Positions 1,440-51,278 of a stretch of DNA of 64,000 bases are shown here, in pieces. The notes beneath the pieces are model-generated. The model saw only the letters and a program-made list of their open reading frames with translations. It did not search any database and was not told where the DNA came from. The stretch covers positions 6,598 to 70,597 of the forward strand of contig CALALX010000003.1 in the NCBI GenBank assembly GCA_937925635.1. Direction: 5' to 3'. Made by a program: the position numbers and the translations under genes. Every line of letters starts with the position of its first letter. Position 1 is the first letter of the stretch. The stretch comes from an uncultured Caulobacter sp. (GTDB taxonomy: Bacteria > Pseudomonadota > Alphaproteobacteria > Caulobacterales > Caulobacteraceae).

Positions 1440-1712
1440 ATGGCCCCCATATCTGAATCGATCGCACAAAAGCTCACCGATGCGTTCCAGCCGACACGGC
1501 TGGAGGTCGTGGACGACTCCGATCGCCATGCCGGGCACGCCGGCCATCGCGAGGGCGGCGGCAGCCACTTCAACGTCATGATCGAGTCGGGAGCCTTCGC
1601 GGGCGTTCCGCGTGTGATGCGCCAGCGGCAGGTCTACGCCGTGCTCGCCGATGAACTCGCCGGCCCGGTGCACGCCTTGTCGTTGAGGCTGTTCGCGCCC
1701 GGGGAAGGTTAG
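1440..1712 (+). CDS. bolA: BolA family protein
   Basis: LEVVDDSDRHAGH...SHFNV...RQRQVY...VHALSL; ATG at 1440 in the 1386..1712 frame. Confidence 0.9.
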   Translation: MAPISESIAQKLTDAFQPTRLEVVDDSDRHAGHAGHREGGGSHFNVMIESGAFAGVPRVMRQRQVYAVLADELAGPVHALSLRLFAPGEG

Positions 1713-2077
1713 CTGGTCACCAGCCCTGTCAGGGCCCGCTCCAGGTCGCTCTGCCGGAACGGCTTCTGCAAGACCGGGGCGTCGGTGTGGTCGCCCTCGA
1801 CACCGGCCGCGCCGTACCCGCTGGCGAAGGCGAACGGCACGCCACGCGCCTTCAGGGCGTCGGCGACCGGGAAGATCGGGCGGCCGGCCACATTTACGTC
1901 GAGCAGGGCCGCGTCGATCTCGGCCGTGCTGGCGAGCATCATGGCCTCGTCGAAATCCGGGGCGGGACCGACCACCGAGCATCCGAAATCGGCCAACATG
2001 TCCTCGACGAGCATCGAGACCAGCATCTCGTCCTCGACAACGAGCACGCGTAGGCCGGAAAGAGCTTCGCTCGCCAC
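1709..2077 (-). CDS. Single-domain response regulator (receiver only)
   Basis: VLVVEDE, LLDVN phosphoacceptor, FASGY and QKPF; directly downstream of the HWE kinase. Confidence 0.9.
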   Translation of the reverse strand: MASEALSGLRVLVVEDEMLVSMLVEDMLADFGCSVVGPAPDFDEAMMLASTAEIDAALLDVNVAGRPIFPVADALKARGVPFAFASGYGAAGVEGDHTDAPVLQKPFRQSDLERALTGLVTS

Positions 2078-2080
2078 GCC

Positions 2081-3703
2081 TCAGTCCTTTTCAACGAGCG
2101 CCGACATCGGCAGGCGGATGAAGCAGGCCACGCCCTGTTCACGGTAGTCCAGTGTCACGCTGCCGCCGAGCTCGGCGGCGAGGCCATGTTCGAGAAGGCG
2201 CGAGCCGAATCCGCGCCGTACGGGTGGCGAAACGGGCGGTCCGTTTGCTTCCCGCCAGTCGAGTTCCAGGTTCCCGTCCCGCACGCTCCAGGCGATCGTC
2301 AGGATGCCCCTCGCCACGGAAAGAGCGCCATACTTGACCGCGTTGGTCGCCAGCTCGTGGATCGCCAGACTCACCGCCACGGCGGCCTTGGGGCTCAGCT
2401 GGATGTCGGGCCCCCCTTCGAGGATCGTCTGGCCGTCGCCGCCCAAGGCGCCGAGTTCATTGTGGATCACCTCGCGCAGGCGGGCGCCCTGCCAGTTCTC
2501 CCGGGTCAGGAGGTTGTGGGTTTCCGACAAGGCCAGCAGGCGGGCTTCGAACGCTTCCTTGAACTCGGCGGGCGTGCGGGCGCTGCGGAGGGTTTGGTGT
2601 GCGATCGATTGGACGGCCGCGAGCGTGTTCTTGACCCGATGATTCAGCTCGTTGAGCATCAGGCGTTGACGGTCCTCGGCCTGTCGGCGCTCGGTGATGT
2701 CCAGCGAAACGCCCGCCATGCGCTTGGCCGGACCGCCCGGGACAATGGCGTCCGCCCGGCCCCGGGCGTGAACCCAGCGAACCTGCCCGTCGGGCCAGAT
2801 CACCCGGTACTCGATGTCGTAGTCCGAGCCGTCACGGATCGCCGCTTCCATGGCCGCTTGCATCCTGGCGCGGTCGTCAGGATGGATCGACATGACGAGG
2901 TCGTCGAAGCCGAAACTCTCGTCCACGCGGCGCCCGTAGTTCGCCTTGCAGAGATCGGACGCCTCGTAGGCGCGGCTGTCGACGTCCAGGGCCCAGGACC
3001 CCATCCGGCCAGCGTTCAGGGCGAACGTCAGCCGCTCCGCCAGCCGGGACTCGGCGGTATGGCGCGCCTTGCCGTCGTCGTCCGTGTCGTCCCGCGCCCG
3101 CATGGCGTCCATGGCCGCGGCGCCCAAGCCGGCGACGCCCAGAACCAGCCGTTCGTGATCGCCCGTGAAGCGCCCCGGCTCCCCATGGCCGAAGAACAGG
3201 CCTCCGAGGACCCTGCCGGAACGGGACTTCACGGGAACCGCCAGGTAGCTGCGCACCGGCAGATGGCCGGCGGGCATGCCGTGATCGGGCGGCAAACGAC
3301 CATAGCGCGGATCGGCGAGGATATCGTCGGAACGGACCACGCTCTCGCCGGTGAAGGTGGGGGCGAAAACGGCGGTGTTGCGCGGCATCGGGAAGCCTTC
3401 GAACGCCGATCGTGGGGCCCCGGAGAGGCTGAAAAGCATGTAGCCTTCGCCGCGGTCGTCCACGACGTTGTAGAAGAACGCCCCAAACGCCGCGCCGGTC
3501 AGTTCGACGCCGCCATCGACGACCGCCTGGACGATGGCGCCGATATCGTGGCCCGCGGCGATGGCCTCGCCTATCCGGAGCAGGGCGTGCGTTCGCCGGG
3601 TTTCCTCCGCCAGCGCGGCTTCAAGCGCGACGACGCGACCAGCTAAGCTCTCTCCCGCTCCGCGGTCTCTAACGGCTGCAGACACCACGCCCCCCGAACG
3701 CAA
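2081..3703 (-). CDS. GAF-PAS HWE/HisKA_2 sensor histidine kinase
   Basis: ELNHRVKNTL H-box, HELATNAVKYGAL, WRE and GFGSRL; N-terminal GAF and PAS/PAC; start could be TTG 3703 or GTG 3688/3685. Confidence 0.92.
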   Translation of the reverse strand: MRSGGVVSAAVRDRGAGESLAGRVVALEAALAEETRRTHALLRIGEAIAAGHDIGAIVQAVVDGGVELTGAAFGAFFYNVVDDRGEGYMLFSLSGAPRSAFEGFPMPRNTAVFAPTFTGESVVRSDDILADPRYGRLPPDHGMPAGHLPVRSYLAVPVKSRSGRVLGGLFFGHGEPGRFTGDHERLVLGVAGLGAAAMDAMRARDDTDDDGKARHTAESRLAERLTFALNAGRMGSWALDVDSRAYEASDLCKANYGRRVDESFGFDDLVMSIHPDDRARMQAAMEAAIRDGSDYDIEYRVIWPDGQVRWVHARGRADAIVPGGPAKRMAGVSLDITERRQAEDRQRLMLNELNHRVKNTLAAVQSIAHQTLRSARTPAEFKEAFEARLLALSETHNLLTRENWQGARLREVIHNELGALGGDGQTILEGGPDIQLSPKAAVAVSLAIHELATNAVKYGALSVARGILTIAWSVRDGNLELDWREANGPPVSPPVRRGFGSRLLEHGLAAELGGSVTLDYREQGVACFIRLPMSALVEKD

Positions 3704-35899: not shown

Positions 35900-38299
35900 T
35901 CAGGGCAGGGCGATCGCTCCGAACACGGCTCCCGAGTCGGATACGTCGAAGGGCATGACGTTGGCCGGACGCGGCGGCAGCGGCTTCGCCCCCGCCGGCC
36001 AACCCTCCGACACGACGGCCCAGTCGACCTTCGCCGGTCCGCGGCCGACCGCAAGCACCAGCTTGATCGGGCCGGGGTCGGATTGCCACCGCAGGCGCGT
36101 CCGCGATCGTCCCGAGGGTGTCGCGTCCTGGTTCTCCGGGTCATCCCGTGAGACGGCGACCGGCCGACCGTTGACGGCGGCGGCCATGACCGGATCGCTC
36201 TCGACCTCGATCATGACCAGCCGTCCGTCGGCCACGCCCTCGACGACGATCTCGCCTGCTGGCGTTCGAGACACCGACAGGCCCGTCGTCGGCGCGCCGG
36301 CGCCGGCGGGAGCCCGCCAGGCCTTGCCCCGCGCGAAGGGCGGGAACGCCGCCTGCTCGACCTTGCCGCCGTCGGCCGTGATCGCCGCGCGAGACCAGTC
36401 GTCGAGGTCGGGCGTCGTCGAGACGCGCCACGCCTTGCCGGTCGCGGCTTCGGTGACATGGAAGACGCTGGTCGCCATCGGATGTCGCTCGGTCCAGGGA
36501 TCCCGGAAGCGCACGGCGCCGACCAGCGCCGCGCCGATGGCGAGCACCACCAGGGCCGGGACCAGAGCTCCGCGACCGTCGCGGGCCGCCAGCGGCCAGG
36601 CCGCGATCGAGGCGAGAAAGACCAGGAGTCCGAGGATCGCCGGCAGGTCCAGACCCTGGGCGACCCCGTGAAAGTAGACGGCTAGCCAGCCGCCCGCCAG
36701 GATCGCGAGGAGGGCAAGGGCGGCCAGACGCAGGCGATCGAGACGCGTGCCGAAGTCGGTCGCCAGCGCCGCCAGCGCGGCCAGGGCCAGCGGCCAGGCG
36801 ACGATCACGGCCACGGTGGGCTGGGCGATCTGCAGGCCCAGCGCCAGCACGAAGCCCACGGCCAGCACGCCCGGCCAGGCGTGCTCGATCTTCTCCGGTT
36901 TGCCGAAGACCGCCGCCGCCAGCCCCGCCGAGGCCATGGCGAGAACGCCCCCGACGAGATCCCAACCGCCGAGCAGTTGGCAGAACACGCCCCCGAGCAG
37001 GGCCGAGACGACGGGAGGCCAGCGCCGCTCGCCGCGTCCGAGCATGGCCGGGATCAGAAGCAGCATGCCGATCGCGATGATCGCCAGGGTCGTCTCCCAT
37101 AGCGCCCATTGGGCCAGCAACGGCCGCTGGCCCATGAAGCCGAAGTCGACGCCGGTGGCGCGACGCGCCAGGTGCAGGGCCAGGGCCGTTCCCGTGAGGA
37201 CCAGCACCGCCGCGCCCGCGCCGCGCAGCACGCCGCGCCAGTCGCCGCGGCCAAGGCCGCCGCGCCGCGCCGCCCAGGCCAGGGCGCCGGCGATGGCTGC
37301 GATCAGGATCCAGCCGCCCCACGCCGGATAGGCCAGCACATGGTCGCCGAAGGTCTGGCTGTAGACCGCGTCCGGGGCCTTGCCGGGCAGGGACTTGGCG
37401 AAGGCGAAACCAGACGCGGCGGCGAGGGTCTGGTCGCCGATATGCTGCACGGAGCCCTTGTCGAGGTTGGCCACGGTGGCGGTGGCGGCATGATAGTCGA
37501 ACTGCCGGCCGATGAAGGCGAAGTTCAGCCCGGGGACGCCCGCTTCCTTGGAGATGGAGAAGTCAGTGTCGTTGGGCATGTTCTCATAAAGGAAGACGGC
37601 CAGCGAGTTGCTCACCGGCGCGCTGGCGGTCCTGGCGAAGGCGGTGACGACGGCGCCATTGTCCGGACCGGTCTGGAACATGTTGGCCCGGCCGCCGTTG
37701 CCGCGGGCCTCGAGATTGATCAGCAGGCCGATCCGCTCGCGAAGCGGATGCTCTGAAAAGAAGGCGCGGGCGCCGAGCAGGCCCGCCTCCTCGCCGTCGG
37801 TGATCAGCACGATGACGTCGCGCTCGGGCGTTCCCCGGGCCTTGAGGGCGCGGATGGTTTCCAGGATGGCGGCGACGCCGGTCGCGTCGTCGGCGGCCCC
37901 GGGCGAGCCGGGCACGCTGTCGTAGTGCGCCATCAGCGCCAGAGCGGGCAGGGTGCGGTCCCGGCCCGGCAGGACCCCGACGATGTTCTCGACGGCGCCG
38001 CCGACGATCCACAGGTCCTCGCCCCAGGCCCGCCGCTCGACCGCCTGCCCGGACTGCACCGTCGGCGAAAGGCCGAGCGAGGTCATCCGCGCCCTGACAT
38101 AGTCACGGACGCGATCGTGGTCGGCCGACCCGAGCGGATGGGGGCGTTGGGCGATCGTCTCGATGTCGACGAGGGCTCGCCCAGCCGAGAAGCCCGCCGC
38201 CGGCGCATTGACGGCCCGCGGGACGGGCGTCCGTGTTCCCAGCCAAGCCAGCACCAGGGCGCCGACCAGTGTCACCGCGAGCGCGATGGTCCGCATCAT
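35900..38299 (-). CDS. Membrane-embedded M28 family metallopeptidase (ERMP1/Pff1-like architecture)
   Basis: AHYDS, GAADD, DGEEAGLLG, NLEARG and YH, followed by about nine TM helices; ATG 38299. Confidence 0.88.
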   Translation of the reverse strand: MMRTIALAVTLVGALVLAWLGTRTPVPRAVNAPAAGFSAGRALVDIETIAQRPHPLGSADHDRVRDYVRARMTSLGLSPTVQSGQAVERRAWGEDLWIVGGAVENIVGVLPGRDRTLPALALMAHYDSVPGSPGAADDATGVAAILETIRALKARGTPERDVIVLITDGEEAGLLGARAFFSEHPLRERIGLLINLEARGNGGRANMFQTGPDNGAVVTAFARTASAPVSNSLAVFLYENMPNDTDFSISKEAGVPGLNFAFIGRQFDYHAATATVANLDKGSVQHIGDQTLAAASGFAFAKSLPGKAPDAVYSQTFGDHVLAYPAWGGWILIAAIAGALAWAARRGGLGRGDWRGVLRGAGAAVLVLTGTALALHLARRATGVDFGFMGQRPLLAQWALWETTLAIIAIGMLLLIPAMLGRGERRWPPVVSALLGGVFCQLLGGWDLVGGVLAMASAGLAAAVFGKPEKIEHAWPGVLAVGFVLALGLQIAQPTVAVIVAWPLALAALAALATDFGTRLDRLRLAALALLAILAGGWLAVYFHGVAQGLDLPAILGLLVFLASIAAWPLAARDGRGALVPALVVLAIGAALVGAVRFRDPWTERHPMATSVFHVTEAATGKAWRVSTTPDLDDWSRAAITADGGKVEQAAFPPFARGKAWRAPAGAGAPTTGLSVSRTPAGEIVVEGVADGRLVMIEVESDPVMAAAVNGRPVAVSRDDPENQDATPSGRSRTRLRWQSDPGPIKLVLAVGRGPAKVDWAVVSEGWPAGAKPLPPRPANVMPFDVSDSGAVFGAIALP

Positions 38300-38451
38300 C
38301 GTCGTGTCCCCCGTTCGGCGCGAGGATGCACGCCCGCGCCGGTCCGGCAATGGGAACCGATGTCGCGGATCACGGTTCTTTGTCACGGGGCCGCGAGATC
38401 GCAATGCTAGCGTCGCCGCGCGCGAGGGAAGCAACAGGGAAAAGACATATC

Positions 38452-39555
38452 ATGAGCAAGCCAATCCTGGCCGGTCTCGCAGCTGCGGCGGCTACCATCG
38501 TCTGCGCCGTGGCGGCCCTGGCCCAGTCCTCGTCTCTGCCTCTGCCGCCTGGAAGCTGGCGCGACAGCTGTGGCGACGCCCGCGCCTACTCCCAGAACGG
38601 CGGCAAGGTCTTGACGGCACGCTGCACCAAGGCCGGCGGCGGCACGGAGATCAGCTCGCTCCGCTACGATCAGTGCCGCGGCGACATCGCCAACAGGAAT
38701 GGCCGTCTCGTCTGCGGCAATCCCGGACCGCTTCCGCCCCGTCCGCCCGTCGCCACGCCGGATGGCAGCTACCGGCAGTCGTGCCGCAACGCCGTCATGA
38801 TCAGCGGCCGGCTTCACGCCGAATGTCGCGACCGCGGCGGCGCCTGGAACCACACCTCCATCGACCCGGCCCAGTGTCGAGGCCGCGATATCGCCAACGA
38901 TGACGGCCGGCTGACCTGCGCGGGCGGCGGCGGCGGCGCCCTTCCCGAAGGCAGCTACCGCCAGTCTTGCCGCGACGCGCGACTCGTCAACGGCACGCTC
39001 TTCGCCGACTGCCGCGACAGCCGTGGCTACTGGCAGCGCGCCTCGATCGATCCGCGCAGCTGCTCGGGTCGTGACATCGCCAACCGGAACGGGCGTCTCG
39101 TCTGCGCCGGCGGCGACAGCCAACTCCCGCCGGGCAGTTGGCGCGCCTCGTGCGACCAGGCCTATATGTCGGGCTGGACGCTCAACGCCGTCTGTCGCGA
39201 CAGCCGCGGCCAGCGCGTTCGCACGTCCATCAACACCCGCACCTGCAATGGCCGCGACATCGCCAACGTCAACGGTCGGCTGACCTGCGGCGGCGGCGGG
39301 GGAGGCGGCGCCTCGATCACGCTCTGCACTCAGCCGAACTTCGGCGGACGTTGCGCGACCATCAATCGCGCGGCGCCGAGCCTGGGTCAGTGGGAGATGG
39401 CCAACCGCGCCGCGTCGGCGAGGGTCAACGGCCGCTGGCTGATCTGTGACCAGCAGGACTACCGCGGCCGCTGTGTCACGCTGGACCGGGACGAGCGCGA
39501 TCTGAACCGCGTCAGCTTCTCCCGCCGCATATCGTCGGTCCGCCCGACGCGCTGA
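38452..39555 (+). CDS. Secreted protein with four cyanovirin-N-like (CVNH half-domain) repeats and a C-terminal beta/gamma-crystallin domain
   Basis: Signal peptide ending AALAQ; 4x GS[WY]RxSC...C...S[IL]...C.G.DIAN.[ND]GRL.C; C-terminal ITLC.QPNFGGRC...RWLICDQQDYRGRC...ISSVRP. Confidence 0.8.
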   Translation: MSKPILAGLAAAAATIVCAVAALAQSSSLPLPPGSWRDSCGDARAYSQNGGKVLTARCTKAGGGTEISSLRYDQCRGDIANRNGRLVCGNPGPLPPRPPVATPDGSYRQSCRNAVMISGRLHAECRDRGGAWNHTSIDPAQCRGRDIANDDGRLTCAGGGGGALPEGSYRQSCRDARLVNGTLFADCRDSRGYWQRASIDPRSCSGRDIANRNGRLVCAGGDSQLPPGSWRASCDQAYMSGWTLNAVCRDSRGQRVRTSINTRTCNGRDIANVNGRLTCGGGGGGGASITLCTQPNFGGRCATINRAAPSLGQWEMANRAASARVNGRWLICDQQDYRGRCVTLDRDERDLNRVSFSRRISSVRPTR

Positions 39556-39593
39556 CTGGAAAGGGCGCGCGTCGCCGCGTCCTGCCGCCATGC

Positions 39594-39625
39594 AAAACGC
39601 CCGCCGGTTCCCCGGCGGGCGTCTT
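39594..39625 (-). terminator. Intrinsic terminator of ctrA (possibly bidirectional)
   Basis: acgcccgccgg-ttcc-ccggcgggcgt; GGAA loop and T-tract on the minus strand. Confidence 0.8.
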
Positions 39626-39653
39626 GTCGTCCGGAGGAGGGCTCCGGGGTCGA

Positions 39654-40349
39654 TCAGGCGGCGCTGACGCCTTCCTGCGGGTCGCGCAGCACATAGCCGC
39701 GGCCCCAGACCGTCTCGATGTAGTGGTTGCCGCCCGACGCCGTCGCCAGCTTCTTGCGCAGCTTGCAGATGAACACGTCGATGATCTTCAGCTCGGGCTC
39801 GTCCATGCCGCCGTACAGGTGGTTCAGGAACATTTCCTTGGTCAGGGTCGTGCCCTTCCGGAGCGAGAGGAGTTCCAGCATCTGGTACTCCTTGCCGGTC
39901 AGGTGGACCCGCATGCCGTTCACCTCGACGGTCTTGGCGTCGAGGTTCACGCCGATCTCGCCGGTCTGGATCACCGCCTGGGCGTGGCCCTTCGAGCGGC
40001 GCACCACGGCGTGGATGCGGGCGACCATCTCGTCCTTGTGGAACGGCTTGGTCATGTAGTCGTCGGCGCCGCCGCCCAGGGTTTTCACCTTGGTGTCGAT
40101 CTCCGACGAGCCGGACAGGATCATGATCGGGGTGTTGATCTTGCCGTTCCGCAGCGTGCGCAGAACGTCCATGCCGCTCATGTCGGGCAGGTTCAGGTCC
40201 AGCAGGATCAGGTCGTAGTCGTAGATCTTGCCCAGATCCACGCCCTCTTCGCCCAGGTCCGTCGTGTAGACGTTGAAGCCCTCGGACTTCAGCATCAACT
40301 CGATGGTCTGAGCCGTGGCGCTGTCATCCTCAATCAACAGTACGCGCAT
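39654..40349 (-). CDS. ctrA: Cell-cycle master regulator CtrA
   Basis: [28 protein letters not shown]...[16 protein letters not shown]; 231 aa from ATG 40349. Confidence 0.98.
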
Positions 40350-40391: not shown

Positions 40392-40591
40392 AGGCGGAAT
40401 CCGCCTCCGGCGCTCACCGGCCACACTGCCGACGGGCTGCTTTAAGACTGGTTAATGGTGAACGACCCTCTGGAAAGAATCGTTAAGGCGATTTGCGAAT
40501 CGCGGGCAAGCGGCAAGTTCGGGCCATGGAGTCACAGGCCGGATGACTCTTTCGTGATCGCCGAATCCCCAGTGAATCCCGAGGGATTCAC
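40392..40591 (-). promoter_or_regulatory. ctrA promoter region: TTAA-N6-TTAA site and eight GANTC (CcrM) sites
   Basis: TTAA at 40442-45, 40452-55 and 40483-86; GANTC at 40397, 40477, 40497, 40529, 40545, 40563, 40574 and 40585. Confidence 0.8.
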
Positions 40592-50715: not shown

Positions 50716-50734
50716 TCTTGATGTTTAGGGGGCT

Positions 50735-50801
50735 TTAATTCAGATGTCTCACAATGAAACAGGGCTGTTAACTTGCGTTAGACGGTGGTTAATCTACTTA
50801 A
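50735..50801. promoter_or_regulatory. CtrA half-site array in the sciP promoter
   Basis: TTAA at 50735, 50768, 50789 and 50798, plus TTAG-N7-TTAA at 50778-50792. Confidence 0.65.
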
Positions 50802-50879
50802 ACCATCGCGCTTTACGGCATGTTATTTCCAATGGCGCATCTTTCACGCCAACAGTCCTGGTGAGAGAGGCGTAGAACG

Positions 50880-51161
50880 ATGCTTCAGCAGCAGCGCGTG
50901 AACAGCAGAGGCGAGAAGTACGTGATCGGTCCGACCGGCGCGCCGCTGACGCTGTCCGATCTGCCGCCCGCCAATACCGAGCGTTGGGTTATCCGGCGCA
51001 AGGCGGAGGTGGTTGCGGCCGTGCGGGGCGGGCTCCTGTCGCTGGATGAGGCTTGCGAACGCTACAGCCTCACCAACGAGGAGTTCCTGACCTGGCAGAA
51101 GTCGATTGACCGTCATGGTCTCGCGGGTCTGCGAACGACCCGACTGCAACAATATCGCTGA
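50880..51161 (+). CDS. sciP: CtrA inhibitor SciP (DUF1153)
   Basis: YVIGPTGAPLTLSDLPP.NT.RWVIRRKAEVVAAVRGGLLSLDEACERY; 93 aa. Confidence 0.96.
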   Translation: MLQQQRVNSRGEKYVIGPTGAPLTLSDLPPANTERWVIRRKAEVVAAVRGGLLSLDEACERYSLTNEEFLTWQKSIDRHGLAGLRTTRLQQYR

Positions 51162-51198
51162 GCCGCTCCGCCCCCCAAGCAAGGCTCGGCGAGACCGC

Positions 51199-51226
51199 GC
51201 GGCCGCGTTCCCCGGAACGCGGCCGC
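51199..51226 (+). terminator. GC-rich hairpin downstream of sciP
   Basis: gcggccgcgttcc-cc-ggaacgcggccgc, a perfect 13-bp IR with a weak T-tract. Confidence 0.55.
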
Positions 51227-51262
51227 TGCATTTCGACCGACAGGCTCCGTCGTCGGCGCCCC

Positions 51263-51278
51263 TTAAGAGGGCGTTTAC
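51263..51278 (+). promoter_or_regulatory. CtrA site of the class II fliF promoter
   Basis: TTAA-gagggcg-TTTAC. Confidence 0.7.

Follow-up and report, generated by a model that had tools for sequence, protein, structure and literature searches.

A putative array of unswapped half-cyanovirin modules fused to a beta/gamma-crystallin domain in an uncultured Caulobacter

Cyanovirin-type lectins are under study as antiviral agents and are textbook examples of strand exchange and domain swapping. Canonical members of this family (CVNH) carry one disulfide per half-repeat (PMC11952781). Caulobacter is also a source of beta/gamma-crystallins, the caulollins, which PMC13171946 describes as Ca2+-binding and presumably periplasmic. 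Here we describe a gene whose product combines both kinds of module. It is located at 38452..39555 on the plus strand of a 64,000-nucleotide stretch of DNA from an uncultured Caulobacter sp. (GCA_937925635.1, contig CALALX010000003.1, positions 6,598 to 70,597; this whole stretch is referred to as the window) and encodes a protein of 367 residues plus stop codon, P0001. Judging from sequence comparison and predicted models, we consider it fairly probable that P0001 is a Sec-exported array of four unswapped half-CVNH modules with a crystallin domain, acting as a multivalent glycan binder. To a wider proposal we give about even credence: the repeat of 52–55 residues with two predicted disulfides would stand on its own as an unswapped 'half-cyanovirin', each bead offering one sugar site. 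It would be the most compact version of CVNH in nature and a plausible precursor of this fold, present in 1 to ~17 copies in thousands of secreted bacterial proteins.

An earlier note on this DNA had recognized a signal peptide, four repeats of about 55 residues with four Cys each, and Pro/Gly linkers. This architecture holds. The N-terminus, MSKPILAGLAAAAATIVCAVAALA followed by QSS, is of the Sec type with an A-x-A site, and the signal peptide comprises residues 1–24 (38452..38523, plus strand) with predicted cleavage between ALA and Q. The A-x-A site before Q is conserved in our alignment of homologues (A1), where it is kept as AWAQ or ASAQ, and residues 1–25 have a predicted local distance difference test score (pLDDT) below 50 in the structural model of P0001. 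Cys18 was considered as a lipobox Cys and discarded, since it is preceded by T-I-V and is not conserved in homologues. The four repeats measure 52–55 residues and contain exactly four Cys each. According to the repeat alignment, repeat 1 comprises residues 34–88 (38551..38715) and is of a 'first-repeat' type with a 3-residue insert, repeat 2 comprises residues 105–156 (38764..38919; pLDDT ~90) and repeat 4 residues 228–279 (39133..39288), whereas repeat 3 (residues 167–218; 38950..39105) was folded alone with AlphaFold2 and compared by Foldseek; all are on the plus strand. First repeats form a clade of their own in a tree of repeats (support 100/99), and repeat 4 branches together with the final repeats of P0002 and P0003, two close homologues (support 90/86, not starred). 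The linkers between the repeats (GNPGPLPPRPPVATPD, AGGGGGALPE and AGGDSQLPP) are Pro/Gly segments of 9–16 residues, compared with 2 residues in cyanovirin-N (CV-N). Repeat 4 is followed by a Gly run and then by a domain of 80 residues, which contains a further four Cys.

The relation of the repeats to CVNH is clear from profile searches. Pfam CVNH (PF08881) matches P0001 in four stretches with 94.7 bits (cut-off 24.5, E 6.5e-27), the best of them being residues 107–216. NCBIfam NF052356, a 'mannose-binding lectin' model, reaches 120.6 bits summed over 4 stretches of the repeat array (threshold 80), from which functional equivalence does not follow, as the model covers ~103 residues and P0001 has 367 residues and an extra domain. 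Scores of this size place the repeat pattern far outside what chance would give. One repeat alone still gives 27.5 bits over positions 1–49 of the CVNH profile. In the PDB, the top sequence match is the engineered tandem cyanovirin-N 3s3z (E 1.2e-8), and lens crystallins come next.

Three features of CV-N recur in each repeat: it begins with G-x-[FYW]-x-x-[ST]-C, it has the first Cys pair, and its hairpin reads I-A-N-x-[DN]-G-x-L. The CV-N half-repeat layout with two additional Cys, as proposed earlier, is thus found in every repeat: Cys1 and Cys2 align with C8/C22 and C58/C73 of CV-N and are found without exception in the 993 aligned repeats, and a Cys1-Cys2 disulfide is predicted at these positions. 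Cys3 is carried by an insert of 3–4 residues in the connector before the hairpin, and Cys4 stands at the position of CV-N W49/Y100. The earlier note called the protein a candidate new lectin; standard annotation already labels Caulobacter homologues as CVNH, and the domain identity is therefore not new. JGI lists a homologue with the same domain combination as 'Beta/Gamma crystallin/CVNH domain', and NCBI names homologues of Caulobacter sp. and C. mirabilis 'CVNH domain-containing protein'. P0001 belongs by sequence to the CVNH superfamily; it represents a so far unstudied form of an established lectin family and no novel type of protein.

The present analysis adds that P0001 and its relatives are built from half-repeats; the classical CVNH domain of two repeats is not their unit. 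A search of 5.8 billion proteins returned about 120 relatives, many of them combining CVNH and Crystall domains; together with the best 150 matches of a repeat-profile search these form a census of 246 proteins with 998 repeats, 971 of which have exactly four Cys. The number of repeats per protein is 1, 2, 3, 4, 5, 6, 7, 8, 10, 12 or 16, and it is odd in 136 and even in 110 of the 246 proteins; the highest count by HMMER for any protein is 17 stretches. The distance between Cys4 and the following Cys1 is at least 10 residues in the census, with a median of 18, compared with 8 for the corresponding distance in CV-N. Apart from the first-repeat clade, the repeat tree displays positional orthology in close homologues and duplications and losses of single repeats elsewhere.

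Proteins with one repeat are instructive. The same genome encodes a paralogue of 220 residues (locus L012, contig C130 of G000, 1495..2157, minus strand) that consists of a signal peptide, a single four-Cys half-CVNH repeat, the linker GGGYGPGGG and a crystallin domain, and single-repeat proteins of 200–230 residues with a crystallin domain occur in many genus relatives. Their CVNH scores are 17.6–18.9 bits over half of the model (17.6 for L012). As these values lie under the cut-off of 24.5, such proteins are annotated as crystallins only.

The alternative is that the repeats pair as canonical strand-exchanged CVNH domains (1+2 and 3+4, or 2+3 with the outer repeats left unpaired), so that P0001 would be an ordinary tandem lectin with a crystallin domain. 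We consider this unlikely. It agrees with the two-repeat domain of all solved CVNH structures, with the engineered tandem CV-N as top PDB match, and with the 102-position Pfam model, which spans pairs of repeats end to end. This model fits P0001 equally well in three overlapping registers, namely repeats 1+2, 2+3 and 3+4. Pairing is, however, at odds with the frequent odd repeat numbers, the common single-repeat proteins and the long linkers, and two further lines of evidence, from structural models and from residue couplings, also oppose it.

In the full-length AlphaFold2 model, calculated with a 27-sequence alignment, the repeats and the crystallin domain have pLDDT values of ~90, the linkers are below 50, and the predicted template-modelling score (pTM) is 0.29. 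Comparison of two adjacent repeats with CV-N structures by Foldseek (~125 columns) gave target-normalised template-modelling (TM) scores of 0.33–0.35 and root-mean-square deviations (rmsd) of 15–20 Å. Hence, the model contains no compact two-repeat CVNH domain. Repeat 3 alone, modelled with a 69-sequence repeat alignment, has a pLDDT of 93.8 and a pTM of 0.74. Against one contiguous half of CV-N it reaches query-normalised TM scores of 0.57–0.59 with rmsd values of 9.3–9.7 Å, and against the whole monomeric CVNHs 3hnx, 2kjl and 2jzk 0.70–0.76 with 4.5–5.8 Å. The latter fit spans 102–108 columns with a gap of ~50 residues, as would be expected if the sheet of the model corresponds to the N-terminal strands 1–3 and its hairpin to the C-terminal hairpin of CVNH. 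A single repeat is thus predicted to form, from its sheet and its own hairpin, the arrangement of 'domain A' of CV-N. The Foldseek comparison had been suggested earlier as a check of the CVNH fold. The models agree with each repeat corresponding to one CVNH pseudo-domain, but not with the canonical strand-exchanged domain, the repeat being predicted to close on itself. By prediction only, P0001 departs from the CVNH definition of one domain formed by two hairpin-exchanging repeats of ~50 residues.

Mean-field direct-coupling analysis was performed on 712 adjacent repeat pairs and limited to variable columns; an earlier run on single repeats was not used, as near-invariant Cys and Gly columns filled its top ranks. 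The top direct coupling links columns 12 and 21, where an additional pair of Cys occurs, and its recovery acts as a positive control. Couplings between sheet and hairpin were found within a repeat only (columns 35-45, 5-45, 5-44, 26-49 and 24-49; scores 0.84–1.74) and were replicated in both halves of the repeat pairs. No cross-repeat sheet-hairpin coupling above 0.8 was detected among the 712 pairs. Columns 5 and 45 compensate in size: W in one is accompanied by V or L in the other, and Y by I. We take columns 5/45 and 24-26/49 to be F4/I91 and E23-T25/D95 of CV-N. In CV-N, these partners belong to different repeats and meet in domain A.

The Cys pair at columns 12 and 21 occurs as a third pair in twelve repeats of relatives (12 observed, 0.2 expected) and probably links strands 1 and 2 by an additional disulfide.

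Residues at the sugar site can be compared with CV-N position by position. Ser or Thr before Cys1 stands at the position of T7 and the hairpin Asn at N42/N93; both positions are conserved and polar, and the Asn is invariant also in the unbiased alignment A1. Asn or Asp is found at the D44/D95 position in 87% of repeats. From this homology, each repeat may be expected to hold one cyanovirin-type sugar site.

Our preferred explanation, the array of unswapped half-modules, would work as follows. P0001 would be exported by the Sec pathway and undergo oxidative folding in the periplasm, where as many as ten disulfides are predicted to form, giving four half-CVNH modules of 52–55 residues on flexible Pro/Gly linkers and a caulollin-type crystallin domain behind them. 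Each module would equal one CV-N pseudo-domain whose hairpin folds onto its own three-stranded sheet and makes no exchange with the neighbouring repeat. The insert of 3–4 residues in the sheet-to-hairpin connector would allow this unswapped closure, and a second disulfide, for which we infer Cys3-Cys4 pairing, would probably fix the hairpin in place. The result would be four independent cyanovirin-type sugar sites arranged like beads on a string and, if binding follows homology, avidity for a repetitive glycan that most likely contains mannose. A disulfide-reinforced tetravalent lectin had already been suggested; this reading fits the sequence and is strengthened by the signs that each repeat is its own unit. 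The crystallin domain, having lost the canonical Ca2+ motifs, would probably serve as a stable, disulfide-braced end for anchoring or association and not as a Ca2+ sensor.

Several points weigh against this explanation. The CV-N contact residues E23, T25, E41 and E101 are not conserved in the repeats, and the sugar may therefore not be Man-alpha-1,2-Man. Some conservation figures for the repeats are partly imposed by the search pattern with which the repeats were collected. As to topology, AlphaFold2 is forced to close the fold of an isolated repeat on itself, the unswapped arrangement was deduced from Foldseek scores, and common descent of each repeat inflates couplings within it. Export is predicted as far as the periplasm only. 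Moreover, the gene is dispensable, being absent from G021, the nearest relative with this locus layout, and no experiment on any family member was found in the literature searched.

The C-terminal domain (39313..39549, plus strand), assigned with Pfam, Foldseek and a motif table, is a single beta/gamma-crystallin domain with four Cys and, as the earlier note had stated, two Greek keys. Residues 289–365 match Pfam Crystall (PF00030) with 42.9 bits (cut-off 25, E 5e-11), and the crystallin model superimposes on 2bv2, 3hz2 and 1a7h with target-normalised TM scores of 0.83–0.89 and rmsd values of 1.2–1.9 Å over 82–84 residues. The two Ca2+ sites are indeed degenerate: ANRAAS and SRRISS both fail the pattern N/D-N/D-x-x-S/T-S, and none of the 25 crystallin-bearing multi-repeat members of A1 has a canonical motif at either site. 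In single-repeat paralogues the motifs are canonical or close to it (L013: NDRASS and NDRISS; L012: EDQITS and NDRVTS). The crystallin domain of P0001 is 35–42% identical to crystallin-domain open reading frames (ORFs) of genus relatives.

The four Cys of this domain form two symmetric pairs, C-TQPN-F-G-G-R-C and C-DQQD-Y-R-G-R-C, in which one Cys per Greek key replaces the first aromatic residue of the Y/F-x-x-x-x-Y/F-x-G signature. Conservation extends through the whole family for the second pair but is confined to close homologues for the first. In genus relatives, crystallin ORFs without CVNH repeats are clustered in twos or threes, as in G018 (contig C1, 1291932-1293231) and G021 (contig C3, 285416-286282); these are probably the caulollin genes.

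An entirely different view would be that P0001 is no lectin. Its crystallin-type domain could be an I36-type (SMPI-like) metalloprotease inhibitor, or P0001 as a whole could be a periplasmic structural partner of the M28-type peptidase encoded next to it, with the repeats acting as spacers. Pfam Inhibitor_I36 (PF03995) matches this domain weakly (19.3 bits, under the cut-off of 21.1), and paralogues pass the cut-off. Such I36 matches overlap the stronger Crystall match, however, which is the usual cross-match within one fold. In addition, the most conserved positions of the repeats are those aligned to the sugar site of CV-N, and the repeats occur with many unrelated partners: tyrosinase, PAN, fucose lectin with C70 peptidase, M10 peptidase and PT repeats. 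By analogy, this variety resembles the behaviour of carbohydrate-binding modules.

The same view draws on the gene order. The peptidase gene, encoding a membrane protein, is the divergent neighbour of the P0001 gene (35900..38299, minus strand) and is syntenic in L017 (an uncultured Caulobacter metagenome-assembled genome, MAG) and L015 (G006), so that in three genomes a gene of the P0001 family lies beside an M28 peptidase gene. On the other side, ctrA (39654..40349, minus strand; 90–100% identity among genus relatives) is the convergent neighbour, in agreement with the orientation reported before. The copy number at this M28-lectin-ctrA locus is three repeats in L017 and in L015 and four in the window. 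In G021 (L022, contig C1, 1..2614), the M28 gene follows ctrA after ~140 bases with no lectin gene between them, which argues against a partnership with the peptidase; at this locus the lectin gene thus represents an insertion or a deletion. The G021 ctrA protein is 100% identical to that of the window, and the identity to the M28 protein of the window is 76% in G021 and 70% in L017. Taken together, we hold a non-lectin role to be improbable. In Caulobacter, the lectin gene is variable and dispensable and would encode an envelope or surface factor.

The orthologue in L015 (G006, contig C12, 1455..2575, minus strand) has an in-frame TAG inside the crystallin domain, and its ORF ends with ...CSDADYRG. 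An intact, near-identical counterpart of this protein, P0015, is present in metagenomes. Either the L015 gene is a pseudogene or its stop codon reflects an error of assembly.

Among single-domain proteins of the beta/gamma-crystallin fold, some act against fungi. The repeats might accordingly carry an effector of this fold to the cell wall of another organism, which would make P0001 an antifungal or anti-competitor factor and not an adhesin; we see very little chance of this. The yeast killer toxin WmKT and a Streptomyces killer-toxin-like protein would be its models, and the patchy occurrence of the gene and the variable repeat number among relatives are often seen with interaction genes. In structure, though, the C-terminal domain matches ordinary crystallin domains best, and among the ORFs of the window no secretion-system or immunity gene was found near the lectin gene.

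The coding sequence itself is well supported. GC content by codon position in 38452..39555 (plus strand) is 0.86 at the third, 0.64 at the first and 0.63 at the second position, which supports the plus frame, and the homologues in A1 begin at the same Met. A longer ORF from a GTG at 38233 (440 residues) was dismissed since the homologue starts coincide with the Met of the signal peptide. An antisense ORF of 394 residues (38407..39591) was regarded as a high-GC artefact, the third-position GC pointing to the plus frame. The four-repeat gene was recovered, with 0–2 base differences, in contigs from three separate public metagenome runs (bioreactor and activated sludge) and is therefore no assembly artefact. 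It turned up in no RNA run. 'Joints' in metagenome contigs that skip ~348 bases were examined as repeat-number variants and rejected, as only 20–22 letters match on one side; they sit in GGC-rich linker DNA and were read as cross-matches from other organisms.

No CtrA box (TTAA-N7-TTAA, at most one mismatch) was found upstream of the lectin gene. The nearest CtrA-box-like site, TTTAAGACTGGTTAA at 40441-40455, has one mismatch and is upstream of ctrA. Three further sites of this kind are located at 50724-51277 near flagellar genes, giving four matches where 0.26 are expected by chance. Scans of 38200-39750 for sigma-70 promoters and intrinsic terminators found none.

The repeat profile matched 4,438 representative proteins at E <= 1e-3, 1,905 at E <= 1e-10 and 437 at E <= 1e-30, the weaker of which can be expected to include ordinary CVNH proteins as well. 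A scan of genome contigs with the single protein gave one Caulobacter MAG and one crystallin-only match. In a literature search of an incomplete library, no study of bacterial half-CVNH arrays, a single-repeat cyanovirin, CVNH-crystallin fusions or a native Caulobacter CVNH was found. If the proposed half-module is real, a sugar site built from ~52 contiguous residues with two disulfides and usable at any copy number would be a minimal scaffold for lectin engineering. The unswapped half-module would also indicate a possible origin of the two-repeat CVNH fold and account for a large class of secreted proteins in bacteria that lacks annotation, single half-CVNH copies escaping standard annotation by falling under the Pfam cut-off.

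Among the closest described systems is cyanovirin-N with the CVNH family (PF08881; 3EZM, 2KJL, 2JZK, Cyt-CVNH 5K79 and Dm-CVNH, PMC11952781). With it, the P0001 repeats share the Cys8/Cys22 pair, the start and the hairpin and, by prediction, the three-stranded sheet to which the hairpin belongs. They differ in that each half-repeat has four Cys and not two, the connector has an insert of 3–4 residues, and Cys4 takes the place of W49/Y100. Long flexible linkers, 1 to ~17 repeats with odd numbers included, and a predicted unswapped topology further set the family apart, as do the signal peptide and the terminal crystallin fusion of P0001. Four half-repeats per chain for multivalency are also found in the engineered CVN2L0 and CVN2L10 (3S3Y, 3S3Z) and in 'nested' CV-N dimers (PMC4926178). 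Those proteins are man-made and consist of whole strand-exchanging two-repeat domains, whereas the natural P0001 has a linker after every half-repeat. For the crystallin part, the caulollins (Jobby and Sharma 2007, cited in PMC13171946), M-crystallin 3HZ2 and the Ciona protein 2BV2 have a single two-Greek-key domain like that of P0001. Caulollins are described as binding Ca2+ and gaining structure on binding, in contrast to the P0001 domain with two degenerate motifs and two Cys pairs. The combination of a secreted CVNH-type lectin with a second domain has a parallel in fungal MoCVNH-LysM (2L9Y, 5C8O). There, LysM sits within a canonical CVNH of two repeats, whereas in P0001 the partner is appended after separate half-modules.

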